DNA of 64,000 nt from Candidatus Zipacnadia bacterium (GTDB taxonomy: Bacteria > Armatimonadota > Zipacnadia > JALGUG01): the NCBI GenBank assembly GCA_029820995.1, contig JALGUG010000010.1:9878-73877 (forward strand), in the 5' to 3' direction. The notes under the pieces were generated by a model that made no database searches, was not told the origin of the DNA, and saw nothing but the letters and a program-made list of their open reading frames with translations. Below, one piece after another: positions 3,268 to 57,010 of this stretch; position 1 is the first letter of the stretch; every line of letters starts with the position of its first letter. The position numbers were made by a program, and so were the translations under genes.

Positions 3268-3737
3268 CATCGCCGGGTTCTCCGCCCGGCGAGGCGGATG
3301 CCCTTCTCGACGACCTCGAGAACGAGGAAGACAGACCATATGGCGACGAGGTAGCCGAGGCAGCAAGAACGCCAGCAGAGCACGGCCGTACATTATGCCG
3401 ACACATACCGCCATCAGCGAAAAGGCCACGAGGGCTTCCGGCATCACCGAGACCAAGCGTATCGCGGTGCTTCCAGGCCGTTCGGCGGTCAGTGTGTCTT
3501 GTCTTTAAGACTGGACAACTGCCAGTCGAGGATCGCCGCCCCGGGCAAGAGCACACAAAAGACCATCCAAGCAACAACAAGCTTATGATCGTGAGCGGCT
3601 ACCCCAAGCAGTAGCGGCAACAGCAGCACCCAGCCGACAAAGAGGGCGCACAGTGCACAAACGCCGCGCCCGGAGCGGACCCGTTTTGTGTCGCTCCTTC
3701 GCCTGACATCAGGCTCACCCCGGCGGATCCTGTGCAA
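3268..3737 (-). pseudogene. Possible frameshifted multi-TM membrane protein
   Basis: Hydrophobic segments continue across three frames: LFVGWVLLLPLLLGV / ALVAFSLMAVCVGIMYG / LGYLVAIWSVFLVLEVVEKG. Confidence 0.3.
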
Positions 3738-3762
3738 GGGATTTGCCGTGGCAGCCGGGGTC

Positions 3763-19911: not shown

Positions 19912-22770
19912 CTACCTCACGAACCCCGCCTCCACCCAATCCGCGTGGTCGCAGTTGATGCCGTCCTCCGCGTCGCTGACCACGAGCTTGAGCTCCCTCG
20001 CCTGGCCCAGCGGCACATTTATCGGCGTGGGCTCCTGATCCGCCCTCACCACCGGGCTCTCGAAGACCTTCTTCCCATCCAGATAGACCTCAAACACGAT
20101 GCTAGCCGTCTTGTCGTGCCGCTTCTCGTCATCAATGCCGCCCCAGGCGACAAACCGCTTGTAGCTGCCGTCTAGCTCGTATACGATTTCGGAGTGCGCA
20201 TGCGTGCCGATGCCGTGCTCGTACTTGTGGCCCTTGATGCTGAGCGGCTTGCCCTCGACGCTACGGTCGAAATGCAGCTCGCCCCACTGTTGCGAGTGCT
20301 TCTTCGGCTTAAGCACCGTGATGAACACATCCGGTGGAGGTGGCGGCTCCGGCGGCGGCAGCGTTTTCGCTGTCACCGGAGCGCCGGCGGCGAATTCTCC
20401 CTCCCAGTCGTACGCTGCGACCTGGTACGAATACTCCGTGTCGGCCTTGAGCCCCCCGTCTTCGGCCCTCAGGTCCGTGGTGACACCTAGGCGCTTGCCG
20501 TCTCGGCGCACCACGTACCCCAGTGCGCCGGGGACCTCCTTCCAACTCAGCCCGATTCGGTCTTGCCGGGCCACCTCAGTTTCCAGAGCGATCGCCGGGG
20601 CGGGCGGCCGTGGTGGCGTCTGACCCGGGCCCACGGTGAGGCTCCACGCGACCTCGCCGGAAGTCGGGCGCATGAAGCTCAGACTACCGGCATACCGGTC
20701 CTGCGTGATCCGGCAAGGCAAATCCCCGGCCTGGCCGCCCGTGAGGCGCCAGCCGGGCGGCAAGCTGACCGTGACGGCATAAGGATCGCCGCCGACCACG
20801 CGCGAGCGGCCCGACAACCGGCGGCCGCCCCGGTCCCAGGCGCATTGCACCAGGTCCACCGCGCCCTGAGCGATATGCCGGCTGGTAGCGAGCAGTTGTG
20901 GCCGGTGGTTGTAGGGGCGAAGGATATACGCCCGGCAAGAAGTCGGCGGGATCAGCAGGTTAAAGCCGTCTTCGAAGACGCCGACCACGCGCTTGTCCCA
21001 GAAGTCGTACGCGATGTGCGGCTGGTCGGGCGGCAGGCCCAGGTCCGTCCAGGTAACCGCCGCCCGGTACGGCCGTCGTTGCCAGTTGTAGAACGCAACG
21101 ACATCAAACTGCCCGGCCGCGTTGGCGACCTTGAGGTCCCAGATCGGCGGTCGGTCGGTTCGGGGGAACAGGTCCAGTGGCTGGATGTCGGTCGCCGGGA
21201 ATACGCGGCGGAGGACCTCGACGCGGTCCTCCGGGAGGTCGTACATCTTGTCGCTGGCCATCAGCAACTGGCCGGTCAAGCCCAGGAGCGTGGCCCACGC
21301 CCGCGCTTGAGGCAGCGTAAGCGGCGGCCGCACGTTTAGGACGTCCGGATCGGCATACCAGGCGATATTGTGGGTGAAGTACCACCGTTGGGTGGCTTGC
21401 AGTGCCGTGATGGCGCCCTTCCAGTGGGCGCCGACGTCTCCGCCCGTGCGGCTGCCGTTCATGATGCCGATGCCCGCGGTCGGGCAGCCCCAGCAGCCGA
21501 GCAGAAACCGGTGGGGCCCGATGGCCTCGCGAATCGCGCGCAGACCATCCCGGTAGGCCTCGACCGGATCGGCATTCTTCCGGCGGAAGAAGCCCCGGTT
21601 GTCCCGGTAGTGGTTGATTACCAGCGGCTGGCCGTCAATCTTGAAGTACTCGTAGCCCCAGTCCTCCCCCAGCCGGCGAAATAGCCACTGCAGGTACTCG
21701 CGCCCCTCGGGCGCCGTCGCATCCACCAGGTAGCGGCCCTCCCAGGTGCCATCCACGTAAGCCCCATCGGGCTTGAGCATGAATGCCCCGGGACGCCTCT
21801 TTACGAACTCCAGATCGCTCTGGCCGAAGGGCGTCAGCCAGATCCCGGCCTTCAGGCCGCGCTGCCTAATCTGGCTCGCCAGCCACTTCATGTCATGCGG
21901 GAACTTGTCCGCTGGCCAACGGTTCCAGTCGCGGTTGTCGCCGCTCCCGTGGCCCCGCCCCTGCCAGCCGTCGTCAATCTGGACATACTCGGCGCCGAAC
22001 GGCTTCAGGTGCCGAGCAATCCACTCGGCGTTCTTCACCGTCTCAGCCTCAGTGATCCCTTGATAATAGTAGTACCATGAGCACCACCCCGACGGCGGAA
22101 GCTTGAACACGCTCTTGTCGAGGGGCTTGAAGTAGGGGAGCTTCTGCGTCTCACGGTACCAGGCGGGATGGACCCTGAGCCGAAGGACCTCCTGCGCCTT
22201 GCCTGACGCCCGCCACGCGGCGGCACGCCAGCGCCAGGTCAGCGGCTCGGTACCCGGGGCCGTCAGACCTAAGTGGTCGCCAACGATCTCGACTGCCGTG
22301 TCGCTCGCGGGATGAAATACCGCGTTACACAGGCGGCTGACGGCCTTTCCCAGGCGCATCTGCACCACGCGCGGGCTGTTCTGGGCCGATAGTCGGCACG
22401 GAAAAGCGCCGGGCGGCGCGACGAGTGCGCCTGAGGGCCTCAAGCCCAAGTCCGGACCGGCTGTGCGCGCCGACACCAGCAGCCCCCGCTTGTCGTCCGA
22501 CGCCGAGCACTTCAGCTCCAGTGCCCCCCAGCGGGCCACAGCGGCAGTGTCGTCCAGCTTGCGCAGCGAGGCGGACGCCCGCTTCTGCGCAGCCCACTCG
22601 TCCAGCGCCAGAATGGCCAAGGTGCCCCAGGGGTCGTACCGGCAGGCCAAATCGCCTGTTTCGCTGTCAAGGGTCAACTGCCACGGCCCGATGTCTTCTC
22701 TGACACGTTCCGCGGAGACCGCGGAGGTTCCGAGACACACGCAGAGCGCGATCAACCTAATATGTCGCAC
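19912..22770 (-). CDS. Secreted alpha-galactosidase (GH27/GH36, clan D) with FN3 and NPCBM domains
   Basis: GWCSWY, QIDDGWQ, YFKIDG nucleophile, RTGGD, DPD; NPCBM GIGTHA..DHADW; GTG start with GGGGAGGT SD. Confidence 0.9.
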   Translation of the reverse strand: MRHIRLIALCVCLGTSAVSAERVREDIGPWQLTLDSETGDLACRYDPWGTLAILALDEWAAQKRASASLRKLDDTAAVARWGALELKCSASDDKRGLLVSARTAGPDLGLRPSGALVAPPGAFPCRLSAQNSPRVVQMRLGKAVSRLCNAVFHPASDTAVEIVGDHLGLTAPGTEPLTWRWRAAAWRASGKAQEVLRLRVHPAWYRETQKLPYFKPLDKSVFKLPPSGWCSWYYYYQGITEAETVKNAEWIARHLKPFGAEYVQIDDGWQGRGHGSGDNRDWNRWPADKFPHDMKWLASQIRQRGLKAGIWLTPFGQSDLEFVKRRPGAFMLKPDGAYVDGTWEGRYLVDATAPEGREYLQWLFRRLGEDWGYEYFKIDGQPLVINHYRDNRGFFRRKNADPVEAYRDGLRAIREAIGPHRFLLGCWGCPTAGIGIMNGSRTGGDVGAHWKGAITALQATQRWYFTHNIAWYADPDVLNVRPPLTLPQARAWATLLGLTGQLLMASDKMYDLPEDRVEVLRRVFPATDIQPLDLFPRTDRPPIWDLKVANAAGQFDVVAFYNWQRRPYRAAVTWTDLGLPPDQPHIAYDFWDKRVVGVFEDGFNLLIPPTSCRAYILRPYNHRPQLLATSRHIAQGAVDLVQCAWDRGGRRLSGRSRVVGGDPYAVTVSLPPGWRLTGGQAGDLPCRITQDRYAGSLSFMRPTSGEVAWSLTVGPGQTPPRPPAPAIALETEVARQDRIGLSWKEVPGALGYVVRRDGKRLGVTTDLRAEDGGLKADTEYSYQVAAYDWEGEFAAGAPVTAKTLPPPEPPPPPDVFITVLKPKKHSQQWGELHFDRSVEGKPLSIKGHKYEHGIGTHAHSEIVYELDGSYKRFVAWGGIDDEKRHDKTASIVFEVYLDGKKVFESPVVRADQEPTPINVPLGQARELKLVVSDAEDGINCDHADWVEAGFVR

Positions 22771-22964
22771 AATCAGTACCTCCCCGATGACCGTCGGCCC
22801 ACTCACCCAGTGCCGTCGAGCAGGTTGCGTGATCGTTCCACGCCGAGATCGCCATTCCTTTGCACTGCACGTCTGGGCAGTCGCACGGTCTTTCGTGGGC
22901 GGCCTGTCACACCACACCGCAGGCGGCTGACGCCAAGGGCCGCGGAGGTGGCTGCCAGTGGGTC

Positions 22965-22981
22965 CGGCAAGTACGTTGCAA
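22965..22981 (+). promoter_or_regulatory. sigma54 (-24/-12) promoter upstream of pspA
   Basis: CGGCAAGTACGTTGCAA: GG (22966-67), N10, GC (22978-79) with TTGCA, about 80 bp before pspA. Confidence 0.65.
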
Positions 22982-23058
22982 TGGGTACATCGGATGGTCA
23001 AGTATTTGCCCGGAAACTGCTCGGGCAGCAGACGACCGGTAATCGGGAGGCGAGCGAG

Positions 23059-23739
23059 ATGGGAATCCTGCAACGGGTAAACCGGATTGTCAAGTCAAAT
23101 ATCCACGACTTAGTGGATCGGGCGGAGAACCCTGAAAAGATGCTCAAGCAGCTCATCCGCGAGATGCAGGGCGCTGTCAAGGAGACACAGACTCAGACCG
23201 CCCACGCCATTGCGACGCTGAAGAAGCTGGAAAAGAAGGCCAGCGAGAACAGCGCTCAAGCAAAGCTGTGGGAGGATCGGGCGGTGATGGCGCTGGAGAA
23301 GGAGGACGAGGACCTGGCGCGGCAGGCGCTGCGCCGCAAGAGGCTGCACGCGGATCAGGAGGGCGAGTATGCCGCCCAGATCGAGAGCCAGAAGCGGTCG
23401 GTGGACACCCTGAAGACCACGTTGGCCGCGCTGCGGGCGAAACTGGATGAGGCCAAGGTCCAGAGCAAGCTCCTGATCTCGCGCGCCCAGCGGGCGAAGA
23501 CGCAGCAGCGCGTGCAGCAAGTGGTTGATCGCGGCACCGATACCAGCGCCTTCGAGGAGTTCAATCGGATGGCCGAGAAGATCGAGGAGCGCGAGTTGGA
23601 AGTCGCCGCGGCGGCGGAACTGCAGGTAGATACGCTGGATGAGCGCTTCAAGCACGAAGAGCAGGAAATAGACGTGGATTTCGAGCTTCAGCAGCTTAAG
23701 GACCGTATGGCCCAAGAGGCTCAGAGCACTGAGGGGTGA
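23059..23739 (+). CDS. pspA: PspA/IM30 family protein 1
   Basis: MGILQRVNRIVKSNIHDLVDRAENPEKMLKQLIREM..A..AL....EDLARQAL.RK; coiled coil; GGGAGG SD. Confidence 0.93.
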   Translation: MGILQRVNRIVKSNIHDLVDRAENPEKMLKQLIREMQGAVKETQTQTAHAIATLKKLEKKASENSAQAKLWEDRAVMALEKEDEDLARQALRRKRLHADQEGEYAAQIESQKRSVDTLKTTLAALRAKLDEAKVQSKLLISRAQRAKTQQRVQQVVDRGTDTSAFEEFNRMAEKIEERELEVAAAAELQVDTLDERFKHEEQEIDVDFELQQLKDRMAQEAQSTEG

Positions 23740-23744
23740 GGCCC

Positions 23745-24443
23745 GTGGGTCTCCTGGAGCGAATCAAAAACCTCGTGGCGGCCAACCTCAATGAGCTGCT
23801 TGACCGCGCCGAAGACCCTGAACTGGCGCTGACGCAACTCATTCGGGACATGGAAGATGACCTGGGCGAGGCCCGGCTGGAGGTAGCGGCGACAGCCCGA
23901 GAGGAGCGCCGCCTTTACGAGGACCTGGCCGACCACCGCCGCCAGGCCGAACGGATGGAGGGCAAGGCGGTCCTGGCTGTCAAGCAGCAGGAGGACGACC
24001 TGGCGCGGGAGGCGCTGCGGCGGCGCCGGATGCACCTCCGACTAGCCGATAGCGTCGCTGAGCAATGGGAGACGCAGCGCGCAAGTGTGGACCGCCTCCG
24101 CCAACATCTCCAGGACCTCGAGCTGAAGATCGAGGAGGCGCGGCGCCGAAAGGACTTGCTGATCGCCCGCAAGCGACTGGCCCGGGCCAAGAAGGGCTTT
24201 GAAGTCACCCTGGCCGAAGCAGGTGAGCTCGAGACAGCCGATGCCTTTGAGCGCGCTGCAGATCAGGTGGATGATTTGGAGGCTGCCGCCGACGCGCTGG
24301 CTGAACTTCACGAGGACGATACCGGCACGCGGCTGGAGCACTTGAGGCGCGAGAAGCTGGAGCAAGAAGTCGAAGCAGACCTCCAGCAGATCAAGAAGCG
24401 CTTGCGCCAGAAGCCCAAGCCCGATCACAAGCCTCCCGGCTAG
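23745..24443 (+). CDS. pspA: PspA/IM30 family protein 2
   Basis: GLLERIKNLVAANLNELLDRAEDPE..L.QLIRDM..EDDLAREAL; abuts the pspA1 stop (alternative start GTG 23736). Confidence 0.92.
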   Translation: MGLLERIKNLVAANLNELLDRAEDPELALTQLIRDMEDDLGEARLEVAATAREERRLYEDLADHRRQAERMEGKAVLAVKQQEDDLAREALRRRRMHLRLADSVAEQWETQRASVDRLRQHLQDLELKIEEARRRKDLLIARKRLARAKKGFEVTLAEAGELETADAFERAADQVDDLEAAADALAELHEDDTGTRLEHLRREKLEQEVEADLQQIKKRLRQKPKPDHKPPG

Positions 24444-24597
24444 CTCTGGGGCCCTTGGACTCGGCGGAACCTTGTAAACCGACAGGCGCTGGGCCCGGCT
24501 CTCTTTGCGGCCGGTCCAGCGGTCAAAGCAGGAACGCGCCGGAGAATGCCGAAAGAGCGCCTAGGGGTTGGCGCTGGGCAGGAGGTGCCCAACCAAA

Positions 24598-25407
24598 ATG
24601 GGTATCAGCCTAACGAGTGCGATGTACTTATTCTGCCTGGTCTTTGGACTGGGCCTGGCCTTTGTCAGCGGGTTCCTCGGTGAGATCCTCGGCCATGGCG
24701 GCGGCGACGGTGACATCTCCGTGGATCACGACATCTCACTGGATCACGACATCTCGCTGGACCACGACGTCGGCGCTGGCGTGGACCATGACGTCGGGGG
24801 CGGAGACGTGCATCTTTCTCCCGTCAGTCCGCCCATCCTGTCTACCATGCTCGTCGTGTTCGGTGGCACCGGGCTGATCTGTGAGAACATGTTCCACTTG
24901 CCGGCGTTTCTCAGTGTTCCAGTCTCGGTGGGGTCCGCTTTGGCCGGTTCGATCATCGTGTTCTTTCTCGTTGCCAAAGTGCTCAGCGCCGTCACCAGCA
25001 CCAGCCATGTTGCGCTACGCAATGCCGTGGGCTCCGAGGCGCAGGTCGTCACGCCGATCCCAGCGGACGGCGTCGGTGAAGTTAGCTATGTGACGCCGTC
25101 GGGTCGGCGGACCAGTCCCGCGCGCTCGGAAGAGAACGTGATGATCCCGAAACATTCCATCGTGCGGATCTCGAAGTTCGTCGGCGGAACTGCCGTCGTC
25201 CGCGAGCAGATAGACGAACGTCTCCGCTCGCTGAGTGAGGCGACGTTGCCCGTATCTGAGCGGACTGAACCCGACGAGACGGAACCAGCCGAGGACACCT
25301 CGACCGAGGCGGCGGCAGAAGCTACCGAACACAAAGCGGAGCCCGAGGCGGCGGGCCCCGCGGATGAGCCGCAGGAGGGAGCGCAGGAGAGTTCGAAGGA
25401 GAGTTAA
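24598..25407 (+). CDS. NfeD-like (YuaF/YqiJ-type) membrane protein, flotillin partner
   Basis: 3 TM helices, Asp/His-rich loop, C-terminal OB-fold VG..A.VVTPIPADGVGEV; directly upstream of an SPFH gene. Confidence 0.85.
   Translation: MGISLTSAMYLFCLVFGLGLAFVSGFLGEILGHGGGDGDISVDHDISLDHDISLDHDVGAGVDHDVGGGDVHLSPVSPPILSTMLVVFGGTGLICENMFHLPAFLSVPVSVGSALAGSIIVFFLVAKVLSAVTSTSHVALRNAVGSEAQVVTPIPADGVGEVSYVTPSGRRTSPARSEENVMIPKHSIVRISKFVGGTAVVREQIDERLRSLSEATLPVSERTEPDETEPAEDTSTEAAAEATEHKAEPEAAGPADEPQEGAQESSKES
24721..24798 (+). repeat. Tandem ~18-bp coding repeat (DHDI/V) in nfeD
   Basis: gtggatcacgacatctca ctggatcacgacatctcg ctggaccacgacgtcggc ... gtggaccatgacgtcggg. Confidence 0.8.
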
Positions 25408-25483
25408 TCCGGTCCGGGAATGTTCCCGGAGGGCCTAATGGCGGGCCGCGGACAGCCCGCGAATCTTGCAGGGGGTGCCTGAG

Positions 25484-26986
25484 ATGCCGACACAGTTTGA
25501 GACCAGTTGGGTGGTCATCGCCGCAGTTGTGGGCGTGTTCATGTTGGTCTGCTTCATGGCCTGGGCGGCGAGTCGATACAAGAAGGTCGGGCCCAATGAG
25601 GCCTTGATCGTCTTCGGCGGCGGCCGGATGAACATCGTCGTCGGCGGCGGCAGAATCGTTTGGCCCTTCGTCAACGAGGTGCAGCGGCTTCCGTTGGAGA
25701 TCATGACGCTGGAAGTGACGACACCCGAGGTATACACGGCCCAGGGAGTGCCGGTAATCGTGGACGGCGTGGCCCAGGTGAAGATTGATGAATCGGAGGA
25801 GAGCATTCGGACCGCCGCCGGGCAGTTTCTGGGCCGGCCGGTCCAGGAGGTCCGGAATGTGGCGTTGCAGACCATGGAAGGCCACCTGCGTGCAATCCTG
25901 GGCACGATGACCGTGGAATCAATCTACAAGGAGCGAGACGAGTTCGCCAAGCGCGTGCAGGAGCAAGCCGCTCCGGACATGGCCAACATGGGCATGCGTA
26001 TCGTGTCCTTTACCATCCGCGATATCCGCGACAATCAGGGCTATCTGGACGCCCTGGGCAAGCCGCGAACCGCACAGGTCAAGCGCGACGCGACCATCGG
26101 TGAGGCCGAAGCGCAGCGGGATGCCATGGCCCGTTCGGCGCAGGCCAACCAGGAAGGGCAAACCGCGCGGTTCGTGGCCGAAACCAAGATCCGGGAGGCT
26201 GAGCGGGACTACGAGACCCAGGCGGCGCAATACAAGGCCGCGATCGCCACGCAGCAAGCCCAGGCGGATCTGGCCTACGACATGCAAAAATACACCACCG
26301 AGCAGCAGGTGAAGAAGCAGCAAGTGCAGGTCGAGGTCGTTGAGAAGGAGATGCAGACCGAGGTCCAGGTGCGGGAGATCAAGCGCAAGGAACGTGAGCT
26401 CGAAGCCCAAGTCCAAAAGCCGGCTGATGCCGAGCGCTACCGCATCGAAACCCTGGCCAGTGCGGAACGGCAGAGGACAATCGCAGAGGCCGAAGGTCAG
26501 GCCAAGGCGGCGGAGAGCATCGGCGTCGGCAAGGCCGCAGCCGCCCGAGCCGAAGGTCTGGCGCAAGCCGACGTTATTCGCGCGCAGGGACTGGCCGAGG
26601 CCGAAGTCACCAAGCAGAAGGGCTTCGCGGAGGCCGAAGCCATGATGAAGAAGGCCGAAGCCTGGCAGAACTACAACCAGGCGGCCATCACCGAGAAGGT
26701 CGTCGAGGTCCTGCCGGCCGTGGCGGCAGCCATTGCCCAGCCGCTGGCCAAGACCGAGCGGATCGTCATGGTCAACACTGGTGGCGGCGACAGCGGGATC
26801 GGCGCCAGCAAGATTACGAACGACATCACAAAGGTCATCGCCGAGCTGCCGCCGATCGTGGAGGCGCTCTCCGGAGTGGACTTCCACGACCTGCTGAGCA
26901 GGCTCCCACAGATCGGCGAGAAAGTTGGCCAGCCTCCCGCCGAATCCGAGGCGCCCCAGGCGCCGCAGCCGCCTCCACAATCCTGA
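25484..26986 (+). CDS. Flotillin (SPFH domain, FloT/YuaG-like)
   Basis: N-terminal TM, YKKVGPNEALIV, LEVTTPEVYT.QGVP..VDGVAQVKI, EGHLRAILG.MTVE, GYLDALG, EA-rich coiled coil. Confidence 0.93.
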   Translation: MPTQFETSWVVIAAVVGVFMLVCFMAWAASRYKKVGPNEALIVFGGGRMNIVVGGGRIVWPFVNEVQRLPLEIMTLEVTTPEVYTAQGVPVIVDGVAQVKIDESEESIRTAAGQFLGRPVQEVRNVALQTMEGHLRAILGTMTVESIYKERDEFAKRVQEQAAPDMANMGMRIVSFTIRDIRDNQGYLDALGKPRTAQVKRDATIGEAEAQRDAMARSAQANQEGQTARFVAETKIREAERDYETQAAQYKAAIATQQAQADLAYDMQKYTTEQQVKKQQVQVEVVEKEMQTEVQVREIKRKERELEAQVQKPADAERYRIETLASAERQRTIAEAEGQAKAAESIGVGKAAAARAEGLAQADVIRAQGLAEAEVTKQKGFAEAEAMMKKAEAWQNYNQAAITEKVVEVLPAVAAAIAQPLAKTERIVMVNTGGGDSGIGASKITNDITKVIAELPPIVEALSGVDFHDLLSRLPQIGEKVGQPPAESEAPQAPQPPPQS

Positions 26987-27005
26987 CCGACCACATCGCC
27001 AAGAC

Positions 27006-27038
27006 CACGCAGCCGAGGCCCCACGCCTCGGCTGCGTG
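27006..27038. terminator. Perfect 14-bp inverted repeat between convergent genes
   Basis: CACGCAGCCGAGGC-cccac-GCCTCGGCTGCGTG, 20 bp after the flotillin stop; no U-tract. Confidence 0.55.
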
Positions 27039-28369
27039 CCGTACGTCCAGTCGTGGGCCTCGAGGCTGTCCAGCAATAGCCGGCGTTCGTACTGTTCCAC
27101 GCTCGTTTCGAAATTGCCGCCCTCCTGTTCGGGCGGCTGCTCAAGCGCCGCACGCCGCAGTTCCAGCGGCAAGTGTCGCGCCTCCAAGGTGTCGCCCTCC
27201 GCGCGGCAGACGGCGCCCTCGATCACGTTCTTCAGCTCGCGGGCATTCCCGGGCCAATCGTGCCGCTCCAGCAGTTCGATCGCCTCGGCTGACAGCTCCT
27301 TCGGCTCGATGCCGGCGATCTCCTCGGCGAAACGCTCGATAAAGTGCCGGGCCAAGGGCACAATGTCATCGCGGCGCTCGCGCAAGGGCGGGATCTCGAT
27401 AATCCAGCCGCTCAGCCGATCGTACAGGTCATCTCGGAACCGCCCCTGCTCGATCGCCGCCCGCAGGTCCGTATTGGTCGCCGCGACGATGCGGACATCC
27501 ACCTCCAGCGTGTCGGTGCCCTGGACGCGCTCAAAGCGCTGGTACTCGATCACACGCAGGATCTTGGCCTGGAAGTCCAGGGACATGTTGCCGATCTCGT
27601 CCAGGAACAGCGTCCCACCGTCGGCGATCTCGAACCGCCCGTGCTTGAAAGGTGCCCCGTCAAAGGCGTTCTCCTCTTGCCCAAACAGCTCACATTCCAG
27701 CAGCCCCTCGGCCAGAGCCGCGCAGTTGATCGTCACAAAGGGCCCATCACGGCGGGCGCCGTCTTGGTGAATGGCCGCGGCCACGAGCTCCTTCCCGGTG
27801 CCGCGCTCGCCGACAATCAGCACCGGCCGGGGCAGTGAGGCCACCTGCCGAACGGTTTCCATCACCTGCGCCATGGCTCGGCTGGCCCAGACGACCTCGT
27901 AGCCGTGGAGAAGCTGCTGGCGCATGAAGTCGCGCTCGCGCTGCAGCGCCGACGCACGAGCCTCGATCCGTCGGCGTTCAGTGAGCACGCGCAGGAGCCG
28001 CGCCGCCTTTTCCATGCTGATGTCGAGCTGCTCCTCCATATAGGCATCCTTCTCGATGAAGTCCTCGGCTCCAAGCTTGATCGCCTGCACGACGGAGCTG
28101 GTAGTGCCCTTGCCGCTGAGCATCACGACCGGCAGATCTGGCGCCAGGACCTTCAGCCGCTGCAGCGCCTCCAGGCCATCCACACGGCCCTCTCCGAAGT
28201 CGAGGTCGAGAATAACCAGCGCGTATTCATCCGGGCGAGCCGTCACGAGGTCCAGAGCTGCTTCGGCATAGGCGGCTGTCTCGACCTGATGGCCGCGGCG
28301 CTTCAACAGGTCCTCCAGCAGGTCCCGAACCTCCGGTTGGTCGTCTACGACGAGAATCGGTGCCTCCAT
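27039..28369 (-). CDS. Receiver plus PspF-like AAA+ sigma54 activator; HTH and stop disrupted (frame open to 25919)
   Basis: REC: ILVVDD..LDLDF..LSG..FIEK. AAA+: GERGTGKELVA, INCAAL, ENAFDGA, LFLDEIG, LRVIEY, FRDDLYDRL, WPGNARELKN. Similarity ends at LEAHDW. Confidence 0.88.
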
Positions 28370-28404
28370 GTTGTCACTCACGGCTCTCCGAGCCGCCAAT
28401 CGCT

Positions 28405-30318
28405 TCAAAACTCCTCCAGTTCGGCCTGGATCAGCTTCCCCGGGTCCTCGGACAGAATGGGCCGCAATCTCAGCCGGGCCCGACTACGGGCCACATCGAG
28501 GTTTAGCGGGAGCTCAACTGTCGCACGGGTGCCGCCGCCGGGCGCGCCCTCCAACCGAATGGAGCCCCGGTGCTCATGTGCCACCTGCTCCGCAATGGCC
28601 AGTCCGTACCCCGAGCCGCCCGGTTTCGTCGTATACCCTGGCCAGCCGAGAATCTGGGCCTGTTCGGGCGGGAAGCCGACGCCCGTGTCGGCTACGATCA
28701 GCCGTACGCCCCAGACATTGGGGCCCCCGCTCGTGGTCGCGTGGTCCTCTATGGTCTCGGCTGTCAGCGTAAGCCGCCCGCCGTCGCACATCGCCTCCAG
28801 GGCGTTGTTGACGAGATTCTGGATCATGTTCCGGAGTCGGCCCGGATCGCCGCGGATTTCGGGCAGCCCGGGGGCAATCCGCAGCTCGACCTCCAGACCC
28901 TCCGCTCGCTGGCCTCGCGCCTGGCCGGCCGCCGTCTCGAGCAGCTCCGCACAGTTGACCACCTGGAAGTCTAATTCCTCGTGATGCAACGCGCTCAAGA
29001 AATCCTGCATGCCGGAGAAGATGCGCTCCTCCAGAGCCAGGAGTTCGTCCAGGCGCTGCGCCGCTTCCGGTTCGTGTTCTGCCAGGTCGCGGCGGAGCCC
29101 GCGCATCCGGGTGGCATGGACCGCGAGCGAGTTCTTGAGCTGGTGGATCTGGTGATAGCTGGCTCGGTGAGCCTCGGCACGGGCGACGTCCACGAAGGCG
29201 AGCACCAGTCGAAAGGCCACAGTGCTGGCCGTTTCGGGAAGCCGGTCCAGCAGGCGTCTCAGCAGGTCCTCCAGGAACTCGTGGGGTGCGTCATAGCACA
29301 GGCGGGCCAAGTTCTGGTACGCGTTGCCGTAGTCGGGGTCGGCCACCAGGGCGCGCAGAAACTGCTGCGCCGCCTCCTCCGGACGTCCGCGACGGCGACT
29401 GATGATCCCAAGGTTGTTGTGCGCGGGCGCGAAGTTCGGCTGCAACCTGAGGCAACGCTGATACTCCTCAACCGCACGGTCATAGGTCTCCGGCCGGTCG
29501 TCATACAGACAACCGAGGGCGAAGTGCACCAGGTGCGCCTCGGGCAGCAGCCGGTCCACGTGCGGCTGCTCGGCCAGTTCCTCCAGCACTTCCAGCGCCC
29601 GATCACGGCAGGAGGGATCCCGGTATTTCGCCTTGGCGTAGAGAATGCCCAGTCGTAGCCGAGCCGGGAGATGATCCGGGTTGATTTCGATAGCCTTCCG
29701 GAAGGCCTCTTCCGCCGCGGCATCGGGCGTGCGGACGTCCTGGGCATGAACCAACCCCAGGTTGTAGTACGCGTCAGCATTACCAGGCTCCAACTCCGCG
29801 GCGCGCGCCAGCGCTTCCTCCGCCTCCGCCCAGCGCTCGCACGCGCTGTAGGCAATCCCCAGGTCGTACAGCGCATGCGCGCGCTGCGGATCGCGCCGCA
29901 GCACTTCCTCGAAGTCCGCGAGGGCCGCTTCCGCATCGCCCGCCTCGAAGGAAGTGTGCCCTCGATAGTGACGGGCGTCGAGGTGGTCAGGGTCCAGCTC
30001 CAAGGCTGTGGAAAAGCTGTGGAGAGCCGCCGCAAATTGCCGGGAATCCTTGTGGATCAGCCCCAAAGTGAAGTGGAAATCTGCATTCCGAGGAGCCAGT
30101 TCCAGAGCCTCCCGGACCTCTACAGCGGCGCGCTCGAAGGAGCCCTGCTTATACAAAGCGACCCCCAGGTTGTGCCGCGCGCGCGCGTACTTCCCGTCCG
30201 CCCGTAGCGCCTCGCCGTACTCCGCAATGGCCTCATCGAGATGCCCGGCAGCGAGCAGGTCATCGCCACGGTCGCAGTGGTGCCGAGCAACTAGCTGGTC
30301 CTGCCGCGCATCGCTCAC
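28405..30318 (-). CDS. Soluble TPR-repeat histidine kinase
   Basis: About 9 TPRs, H-box IHQLKNSL, NLVNNALEAM, DTGVGF, YTTKPGGSGYGL; no TM; GTG start with SD. Confidence 0.9.
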   Translation of the reverse strand: MSDARQDQLVARHHCDRGDDLLAAGHLDEAIAEYGEALRADGKYARARHNLGVALYKQGSFERAAVEVREALELAPRNADFHFTLGLIHKDSRQFAAALHSFSTALELDPDHLDARHYRGHTSFEAGDAEAALADFEEVLRRDPQRAHALYDLGIAYSACERWAEAEEALARAAELEPGNADAYYNLGLVHAQDVRTPDAAAEEAFRKAIEINPDHLPARLRLGILYAKAKYRDPSCRDRALEVLEELAEQPHVDRLLPEAHLVHFALGCLYDDRPETYDRAVEEYQRCLRLQPNFAPAHNNLGIISRRRGRPEEAAQQFLRALVADPDYGNAYQNLARLCYDAPHEFLEDLLRRLLDRLPETASTVAFRLVLAFVDVARAEAHRASYHQIHQLKNSLAVHATRMRGLRRDLAEHEPEAAQRLDELLALEERIFSGMQDFLSALHHEELDFQVVNCAELLETAAGQARGQRAEGLEVELRIAPGLPEIRGDPGRLRNMIQNLVNNALEAMCDGGRLTLTAETIEDHATTSGGPNVWGVRLIVADTGVGFPPEQAQILGWPGYTTKPGGSGYGLAIAEQVAHEHRGSIRLEGAPGGGTRATVELPLNLDVARSRARLRLRPILSEDPGKLIQAELEEF

Positions 30319-30519
30319 GGTGCACTCTCCTGAGGGGATTGTAGCCCAACAGCCGGAATCATTCAACAGTGCGGCGAGCGCTGTCCGGTCCTAAGGCAGG
30401 AGGACCACAGCTTTGGCGGAACCTTGTCGCTAAGTCTCAGCCGTCGCCGGTCATGCCGCCGAAAGCCTGGGACACCGGCGCTCCTCTCCTGCTCCGCTTC
30501 AACTCAAAGGGTGGTGACG

Positions 30520-56532: not shown

Positions 56533-57010
56533 CTTACGATCGGTCGCATGGGGCAAGCTGATTGCAACGTCATGCTAGGTCGGCTGTTCCCCGCGGCCTA
56601 TCCGCTTTGCGCGCACCGGGTGCTGCGCGCTGCCAGCAGTGACTTCGCGCCGCATATCCGGCATCCCGAGGGCCGAGCGGACGGCACGAGGCGGAGGCTC
56701 CGCGCAAGAACAACAGCTCGTAGGCCAAGGGGAGCCTGGGAAGGCACGAGTACCGGATGTGCTCGTGGCGCGGGTGGCACCGTCACATCAGGTTGGTGAT
56801 TCTGGCTCATCATTCTCCTGGTCCGCTTCAAGCTCCGACACAAAAGGGGGCACCGGCGCTCAAGCTCAATCAAGCCTGCGCCCTGCCAAGGCTCGACCTG
56901 TCATGCCGGCTGCTAAGGCCGCCCGAGCCCATCGAACTGCTTCGCCACATCCAACGCCACAACCACAGGGCCAAGATCGCCCCTCTGACCGAGCCTTGTA
57001 CGGGGGGCGC

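Follow-up and report, generated by a model that had tools for sequence, protein, structure and literature searches.

In this study, we analysed a 64,000-nt stretch of DNA from a Candidatus Zipacnadia bacterium (the window, to which all coordinates refer) and found in it a real and conserved module consisting of a sigma-54-type pspA1-pspA2-yuaF/nfeD-floT operon and the adjoining genes for an NtrC-type response regulator (RR) and a tetratricopeptide repeat (TPR) histidine kinase (HK). With some reserve, we take this to be a membrane-stress module whose operon is probably switched on by the RR and the kinase. An earlier note on this DNA had proposed such a hybrid system, that is, a sigma-54 operon that lacks PspBC and LiaF and is functionally linked with a soluble TPR kinase and a receiver-AAA+ activator, and the promoter, the linkage and the phyletic set support it. 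All of the evidence comes from metagenome-assembled genomes (MAGs) of uncultured Armatimonadota. The window genome, coded G000, is an assembly of 481 contigs and 95% complete, and it was compared with the 79 species genomes, in 15 families, of its class. The features of the locus are as follows.

22966-22980, plus strand: sigma-54-type -24/-12 promoter GGCAAGTACGTTGCA, 82 nt 5' of the pspA1 ATG (pattern search and conservation)
23059-23739, plus strand: pspA1, 226 aa, PspA/IM30 family (PF04012, 154.9 bits)
23736-24443, plus strand: pspA2, 235 aa, GTG start, 4-nt overlap with the pspA1 stop (PF04012, 127.3 bits)
24598-25407, plus strand: gene for a YuaF/NfeD-like membrane protein, 269-279 aa, possible TTG start at 24568 (ortholog profile matching PDB 2K14)
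25466-26986, plus strand: gene for a FloT-like flotillin, 506 aa (Band_7, 117.7 bits; NF058507, E 1e-142)
27006-27038, no strand: perfect hairpin (14 bp, 5-nt loop) separating the convergent operons (folding compared with shuffles)
27046-27052, no strand: 7-nt word GACTGGA (minus strand), junction of an apparent 103-nt deletion (alignment with a contig of the public run X1)
27046-28408, minus strand: gene for the NtrC-family RR, with receiver (REC), sigma-54 AAA+ and AAA lid domains, start TTG at 28408 or ATG at 28369 (Pfam)
28405-30366, minus strand: gene for the soluble TPR HK, 637-653 aa, likely start GTG at 30318 (Pfam TPR families and HATPase_c)

The two regulatory genes face the operon, and the stop of the HK gene overlaps the longest RR open reading frame (ORF) by 4 nt. 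A convergent TPR kinase and receiver-AAA+ activator had been described before; both genes do lie on the minus strand and encode those domains by Pfam, and their order has to be corrected to flotillin, RR, HK along the window, with the RR adjoining the flotillin gene and the HK distal.

The site cGGCAAGTACGTTGCA, 82 nt before the pspA1 ATG, fits the sigma-54 consensus TGGCAC-N5-TTGCA, its GG/GC doublets being 10 bp apart, as far as sequence alone can tell. The window contains three exact matches to GGCA-N6-TTGCA where 0.63 are expected, and three or more matches were reached in 5 of 100 shuffles. Taken alone the match is mildly unusual; it is conservation that gives it real weight. GGCA-N6-TTGCA is also present between the RR gene and pspA1 in three relatives (G002, G010 and G007), and TGGCA/TGGCC-N6-TTGCA lies upstream of pspA in three more (G068, G067 and G017), where TGGCAAC(T/A)TCCTTGCA and TGGCCAAATCGTTGCA are the sites before the single pspA gene. 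The -24/-12 promoter of the earlier proposal is thus located at 22966-22980, and of the 10 genomes with a readable pspA upstream region, the window's own included, 7 keep it in front of pspA. The pspA1 promoters were compared by pattern search; a MAFFT alignment of the four pspA1 upstream regions set it wrongly in two of them. The two further exact matches in the window lie at 3733-3747 (minus strand) and 56552-56566 (plus strand). A second candidate promoter, TGGTCAAGTATTTGCC at 22995-23010, has the correct spacing but no conservation and was dropped in favour of that at 22966-22980, and the pattern TGG-N9-TTGC, which has the wrong spacing, is at chance level (10 matches, 9.6 expected).

Both PspA proteins score far above the PF04012 cut-off of 33.9 bits and cover profile positions 1-217 of 220, and the two genes are the sole PspA genes of G000, which bears out the tandem paralogues described earlier. 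Both miss the TIGR02977 PspA and the LiaH equivalog cut-offs; by these scores they are to be classed as members of the PspA/IM30 family and not as equivalogs. Orthologs of pspA1 (54-58% identity) are found only in G002, G010 and G007, each time directly after the promoter, and the pspA2-type paralogue is the single pspA retained in the genomes of families f15, f12 and f4. The flotillin, also named as such before, has the full architecture of one N-terminal hydrophobic segment (approximately residues 10-38) that would serve as an anchor, an SPFH domain and flotillin repeats. It reaches 26.1 bits with Flot, just short of the cut-off of 27, and matches the NCBIfam FloT model NF058507 over positions 4-475 of 477 with 476.5 bits, below the 700-bit equivalog cut-off. 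At G017:C39 and G011:C204 the flotillin ortholog contains a single in-frame stop (TGA and TAA, respectively), which may be a sequencing error, a pseudogene or a sign of two genes.

The gene between pspA2 and floT is a less certain case. It had been called NfeD; the protein of the window has no Pfam or NCBIfam match of its own and none to Pfam NfeD at E <= 0.1. A profile of eight orthologs, on the other hand, matches one solved structure only, the YuaF soluble domain 2K14 (E 2.6e-5), and five of the eight weakly match Pfam NfeD (best E 3.6e-4, below the cut-off). A KD19 window shows two regions of strong hydrophobicity in the protein, which also contains a loop rich in His and Asp, a soluble C-terminal domain and an acidic tail; its gene sits between pspA and the flotillin gene in every locus read. 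We accept it as a probable YuaF/NfeD-like membrane protein, with less certainty than the earlier note implied.

The RR contains a receiver (PF00072, 78.2 bits), a sigma-54 activator AAA+ domain (PF00158 Sigma54_activat, 202 bits) and AAA_lid_14 (88.9 bits). The receiver residues are in place (DD, the acceptor D in VILDLDF, the S in MLSGKG and the K in AIKLG), as are Walker A (GERGTGKE) and the Walker B stretch (LFLDEIG). The earlier note had regarded this protein as an activator of the PspF lineage. That assignment does not hold: NtrX, NtrC, AtoC, the PEP-CTERM RR and NifA all rank above PspF among the NCBIfam models, no cut-off being reached, and the PspF equivalog TIGR02974 comes sixth with 304.1 bits against 443.55; moreover, the receiver domain is one that PspF lacks. 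Trp56 of PspF, which we take to be the residue contacted by PspA, is without counterpart in the aligned stretch of the RR. On domain content and model ranking, the protein classifies as a generic NtrC-family response regulator.

The HK has TPR repeats over approximately residues 30-360 and an HATPase_c domain (73.8 bits). Pfam gave no HisKA match and detected no PAS or periplasmic domain. Its DHp helix nevertheless reads IHQLKN, the His of H-x-x-K-N being invariant in 12 of 12 orthologs, and its catalytic half is best matched by the NCBIfam models of ZraS and AtoS. No 19-residue window reaches a hydropathy of 1.61 in a search for a membrane span. These features indicate a soluble two-component histidine kinase. 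Complex prediction with the TPR region (residues 20-400) and PspA2, both supplied as alignments, gave 0.01 against a mark of 0.32, for which the tool's verdict is 'no answer'.

Of the 79 genomes of the class, 11 have an ortholog of the RR (49-58% identity at E <= 1e-124, with paralogs reaching 1e-87 at best). In four of the 11 (G000, G002, G010 and G007), which cover families f1, f3 and f8, the RR gene lies beside the pspA operon, in two arrangements: in the window the operon is followed by the convergent RR and HK genes, and in the other three genomes RR, promoter and pspA1-pspA2(-nfeD-flot) are all co-directional, with the HK ortholog (49-51% identity) away from the RR. The HK gene adjoins the RR gene in six of the 11 (G000, G017, G011, G015, G003 and G013). 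A single-pspA operon (pspA2-type, nfeD, flot) lies apart from HK-RR in four of the last five, no pspA-flotillin operon having been found in G013, and in G065 and G068 the RR, the HK and the operon are each on separate contigs. The three components keep company: flotillin orthologs of at least 57% identity occur in 11 genomes, 10 of them with the RR, the mismatches being G013 (670 contigs) and G067 (86% complete, 1460 contigs), and HK orthologs, for which 16 genomes and the fetched loci were searched, are present in all 12 genomes that have the RR or the flotillin operon. No alternative neighbour of RR or HK is conserved; genes for PIN, rubrerythrin, topoisomerase, DNA methylase, GGDEF and DUF72 proteins vary by genome. 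The transitive linkage (HK with RR in six genomes, RR with the operon in four), together with the shared phyletic set and the lack of another conserved neighbour, makes a circuit from HK through RR to pspA the best reading.

Some neighbours of the regulatory genes in relatives deserve mention in their own right. A gene for a 1113-aa Eco57I/MmeI-type restriction-modification methylase lies between RR and the pspA promoter in G007 (L015:11122-14463) and looks inserted. A GAF-GGDEF diguanylate cyclase gene follows the RR-separated TPR kinase gene in G002 (L039:11486-13186), and in G007 a DUF72 gene precedes the kinase gene. In G017 a second histidine kinase gene, encoding a PAS-containing protein (L016:14630-15883), is located directly upstream of the promoter of the TPR-HK/RR unit, which there begins with the sigma-54 paralogue gene described below.

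In the circuit that we favour, the operon would supply ESCRT-III-like PspA polymers, a flotillin scaffold and an NfeD-type partner. With a -24/-12 promoter, it would be expected to stay silent until its closed complex is remodelled by an AAA+ enhancer-binding protein, a role that most likely falls to the NtrC-family RR encoded next to it. The co-transcribed cytoplasmic TPR kinase would phosphorylate the RR receiver; phosphorylation would free assembly of the AAA+ ring, which in turn would open the pspA promoter. As the HK has no membrane segment, its cue, presumably a stress signal, would have to be cytoplasmic or membrane-peripheral and be read through protein contacts of the TPR array. The earlier note had suggested that the TPR region perhaps reads the state of the PspA polymer or the flotillin, which would be a reasonable input for a soluble kinase.

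The 3' end of the RR gene is broken in the window. The ORF has no HTH_8 match and no stop codon there; it runs on antisense into the flotillin gene, to a total of 829 aa, and homology to the orthologs stops at ...LEAHDW (27046). All eight RR orthologs read have about 30 further residues of a Fis-type helix-turn-helix (HTH), and PF02954 is listed for P0002 and others. P0002, the closest homologue (75% identity), has 31 residues and a stop after the same Trp, that is, 96 nt. Contigs of four public runs (X1 to X4) were compared with the region, and a 460-nt contig of X1 (record 3; about 99% identical, depth 2.9) runs from the 3' end of the flotillin gene to the 3' region of the RR gene and confirms their convergent arrangement. 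Positions 1-256 of this contig match 26797-27052 and positions 353-460 match 27046-27153, which leaves 96 unaligned bases and a second copy of the 7-nt word; the window is thus shorter by about 103 nt, with a 7-nt direct repeat at the edges of the gap. In length, the 96 nt agree with what P0002 needs for its HTH residues and stop. X1 is a second assembly and not necessarily an independent sample, and among the listed contigs of runs X2, X3 and X4 none spans 26990-27060. The hairpin at 27006-27038 (-31.8 kcal/mol, z -5.3, as stable in 0 of 200 shuffles) is terminator-like without a T tract, and as it is perfect and lies within the 59 bases from the RR break to the flotillin stop, this region is intergenic rather than degenerate coding sequence. 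A simple frameshift, with 'VRHAAEAWGL' in another frame, was considered and rejected, because that stretch is the hairpin itself, the alternative frames offer neither an HTH nor a timely stop, and the X1 contig places a 103-nt gap here. The missing HTH was not found elsewhere in G000 by tblastn with the ortholog C-terminus. We conclude that the loss of the HTH is a deletion (minority) allele or an assembly error and not a property of the lineage.

The L1 loop of the RR, at the GAFTGA position that contacts sigma-54, is NAFDGA both in the window and in eight orthologs; G065 has GAYDGA there and G017 DAFNNA. In more distant relatives, of which many bear the label Candidatus Poribacteria, the loop is NAFTGS or NAFTNS. 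A tblastn search of G000 with the AAA+ domain found only a pair of bacterial enhancer-binding proteins (bEBPs), the RR and one on C182 with the loop GAFTNA. G000 also has exactly two sigma-54-type genes, the canonical rpoN, which is split over C38/C336, and a divergent paralogue of 434 aa at C406:7394-8698. Its orthologs in G017, G011, G015 and G003 are about 415-430 aa long, and the sole sequence-detectable domain is Sigma54_DBD. For the G000 paralogue this domain scores 67.2 bits, TIGR02395 gives 72.7 bits against 277, and the RpoN box is ARRTVAYHR. In an AF2 model (eight orthologs, pLDDT 75) about 440 columns can be aligned with sigma-54 chains; the TM of about 0.3 is low, as is expected of a flexible multi-domain protein, and the top 30 PDB matches in a Foldseek search with the model are all sigma-54 (best E 1.4e-8). 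The broken HTH, the NAFDGA loop and this co-distributed sigma-54 paralogue are points absent from the earlier note.

It is conceivable, if doubtful, that the paralogue and not the canonical RpoN serves the pspA promoter, the loop x-A-F/Y-D/N-G/N-A of the RR and the altered N-terminal region of the paralogue forming an orthogonal pair. Within the class the distribution speaks for such a pair: at E <= 1e-15 the paralogue is found in 14 of the 79 genomes, namely the same 12 that have the RR, the HK or the operon and two with weak partial matches, and it is encoded immediately upstream of HK-RR in four of them (G017, G011, G015 and G003). In G017 the paralogue-HK-RR unit has a near-identical -24/-12 site, TGGCAAATTCGTTGCA, in front of it, a -24/-12-like site precedes the first gene, for a solute-binding-type protein (SBP), of the operon that holds the paralogue in G000, and the match of the model to sigma-54 chains over their full length, the kept RpoN box and the pairing of two sigma-54-type genes with two bEBPs in G000 would all fit. 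The wider phylum tells a different story. Among 401 sampled genomes the paralogue occurs in 56, against RR orthologs (E <= 1e-95, four candidates per genome scored) in eight, all of this class; 12 paralogue loci of other classes have no RR, HK or pspA within about 8 kb; and the nine bEBPs of five paralogue-bearing genomes of other classes all have GAFTGA or GAFTDA loops. The paralogue clearly does not need the RR. It is, moreover, unlinked to HK-RR in six genomes (G000, G002, G007, G010, G065 and G068), and the pspA promoter resembles a canonical sigma-54 promoter. A fully self-contained orthogonal circuit of paralogue, NAFDGA-type RR and TPR kinase, insulated from the canonical RpoN regulon and with the TPR array reading the assembly of the PspA/flotillin scaffold as feedback, seems unlikely to us.

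Relatives of the paralogue amount to 102 representatives at E <= 1e-30 in an exhaustive HMMER search and to 10 in a word-indexed protein search; a search for related loci with a four-row alignment gave three, all Armatimonadota MAG records. Besides about 60 full-length relatives, there is a larger set of proteins of about 350 aa that match profile positions of approximately 184-426 and look like a shorter related family. In G000 the paralogue may belong to an operon (C406:6001-10959) of an SBP_bac_8 gene, the paralogue, NTPase_1 and a FHA-GAF-adenylate/guanylate cyclase; the -24/-12-like site there, TGGCAGGAAGCTTGCA, lies 16 nt before the first ATG, that of the SBP gene. In G010, G007 and G002 the paralogue is also directly behind another gene.

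Several observations weigh against the proposed control of the pspA operon by HK and RR. The RR gene is not beside pspA in seven of the 11 genomes that have it, and in G002 the HK is on another contig than the RR (>400 kb). At the pspA-nfeD-flot operon of G003, G011 and G015 (family f4) no -24/-12 site is recognizable and HK-RR are present elsewhere in the genome, so the wiring is not uniform. No common upstream activator site was found before the seven promoters, shared dyads occurring in at most two genomes, and an inverted-repeat search of 22760-23060 found none. When the upstream region of pspA was aligned locally with that of the paralogue operon, in G017 and G000, the scores likewise stayed inside the shuffle range. 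The Thr of GAFTGA is replaced by D or N in 11 of 11 RR orthologs, the aromatic Phe/Tyr being retained, and this departure makes ordinary sigma-54 coupling uncertain. The 12 genomes with the components fall into six of the 15 families and may be one clade, so that their co-distribution is supportive and not independent evidence. As for the break in the RR gene, the extra stretch of X1 is known by length, at a depth of 2.9, and X1 is possibly the source sample of the window.

The separation of RR from pspA, the f4 genomes, the lack of an RR binding site in the upstream-region searches and the second bEBP of G000 could be accounted for if HK and RR control something else, their adjacency to pspA in four genomes being incidental, and if the C182 bEBP with its GAFTNA loop fires the pspA promoter. 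We consider this improbable: the RR adjoins the same operon in two gene orders over families f1, f3 and f8, this adjacency has survived the methylase gene insertion in G007, neither RR nor HK has another conserved neighbour, and the RR and the flotillin operon occur together in 10 genomes. That the RR rather than the C182 bEBP activates the pspA promoter is most likely, and phosphotransfer from HK to RR would complete the favoured HK-RR-pspA circuit. The linkage of HK and RR to pspA in relatives, on which the earlier note had let its proposal depend, is accordingly mixed but positive: RR-operon and HK-RR adjacency and a single phyletic set stand on one side, and on the other the genomes in which RR and pspA are apart.

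The divergent neighbour upstream of the operon (19912-22765, minus strand) is unrelated to the module. Its product, a large secreted glycoside hydrolase that resembles melibiase/alpha-galactosidase, carries an NPCBM domain at the C-terminus and has a signal-peptide-like segment at its start near 22765; the longest ORF, to 23073, overlaps the pspA promoter and is probably too long.

The effector half of the locus belongs to a familiar theme. PspA is functionally tied to SPFH/flotillin proteins and a YuaF/NfeD partner (PMC8581546, PMC13713150 and PMC9239133). According to Ravi et al. (2024; PMC11237479), PspA with a TM-band-7-flotillin and a YqiJ/YuaF-type membrane protein is a catalogued conserved context, and according to Popp et al. 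(2022; PMC9239133) band-7 genes adjoin pspA in several phyla. The window has the same effector half as the theme of Ravi et al.; the core of that theme (PMC11237479) includes a CesT/Tir-like chaperone and frequently an AAA+ ATPase of the coiled-coil/beta-propeller kind, and the window locus shows neither. The supplementary tables of Ravi et al. may list contexts such as ours. In a full-text literature search, which left subscription journals and supplementary tables outside, we found no pspA-flotillin operon controlled by a REC-bEBP and a TPR kinase and no sigma-54 control of pspA in Armatimonadota. What appears new, as judged from that literature, is that a pspA-pspA-yuaF-floT operon with a sigma-54 promoter is combined with a soluble TPR kinase and with an NtrC-type RR whose L1 loop is of variant form; the component themes are already known.

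On the regulatory side, transcription of pspA in Escherichia coli starts at a sigma-54 promoter and depends on an AAA+ enhancer-binding protein whose gene lies beside the operon (PMC9239133 and PMC11237479). The window resembles this PspF/pspABCDE system in its sigma-54-promoter pspA and its adjacent AAA+ activator gene; however, PspF of E. coli has no receiver, is inhibited by PspA and is served by the sensors PspB and PspC, whereas the RR has a full receiver and a partner kinase. As the earlier note had stated for the locus, no pspB/pspC or liaF-like gene is present: PspB, PspC and LiaF-like_C have no match anywhere in the 95%-complete G000. One unlinked DUF4097/Toastrack protein is encoded in this genome. 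PspF-type control is reported to have been described only in Enterobacteriaceae (Popp et al., 2022; PMC9239133), and the psp genes of Desulfovibrio are assigned a PspF-type single-component regulator (Kazakov et al., 2015). LiaRS-liaIH of Bacillus subtilis shares with the proposed circuit a PspA homologue under two-component control. There, however, the kinase LiaS is a membrane protein governed by LiaF, LiaR is of the NarL type and the promoter is a sigma-A promoter, unlike the soluble TPR kinase, NtrC-type RR and -24/-12 site of the window; likewise, the SigW-controlled pspA-ydjGHI and yuaF-floT operons of B. subtilis are separate, whereas pspA, yuaF-like and floT-like genes form one operon in the window.

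Among two-component systems, NtrB-NtrC, ZraS-ZraR and AtoS-AtoC share with the window the REC-AAA+-HTH design, with NtrX, NtrC and AtoC as the best NCBIfam matches, and the H-x-x-KN H-box; the window pair differs from them in reaching no equivalog cut-off, in its long TPR input, in its NAFDGA loop and in its PspA-flotillin target. Sigma-54 paralogues each with its own bEBP (NifA, FleQ, AprX) and promoter subset are described for RpoN1-4 of Cereibacter sphaeroides (PMC11999139). Those paralogues are recognizable RpoN proteins and their activators have GAFTGA or GSFTGA loops, whereas in the G000 paralogue the DNA-binding domain alone is detectable by sequence. Activator-sigma specificity could be studied on the natural example that the variant L1 loop and the paralogue occurring with it provide. 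To our knowledge, the switching-on of PspA/ESCRT-III-type membrane repair is largely unexplained beyond the enterobacterial PspF-PspABC and the firmicute Lia systems. If the TPR kinase does read the membrane scaffold from inside, envelope stress would be sensed here on a principle that is new. The locus thus presents a concrete candidate for a third design, in which sigma-54 gating would be retained, the PspA-titration switch would be replaced by a classical phosphorelay with a cytoplasmic sensor, and PspA and the flotillin/NfeD scaffold are joined in one operon.

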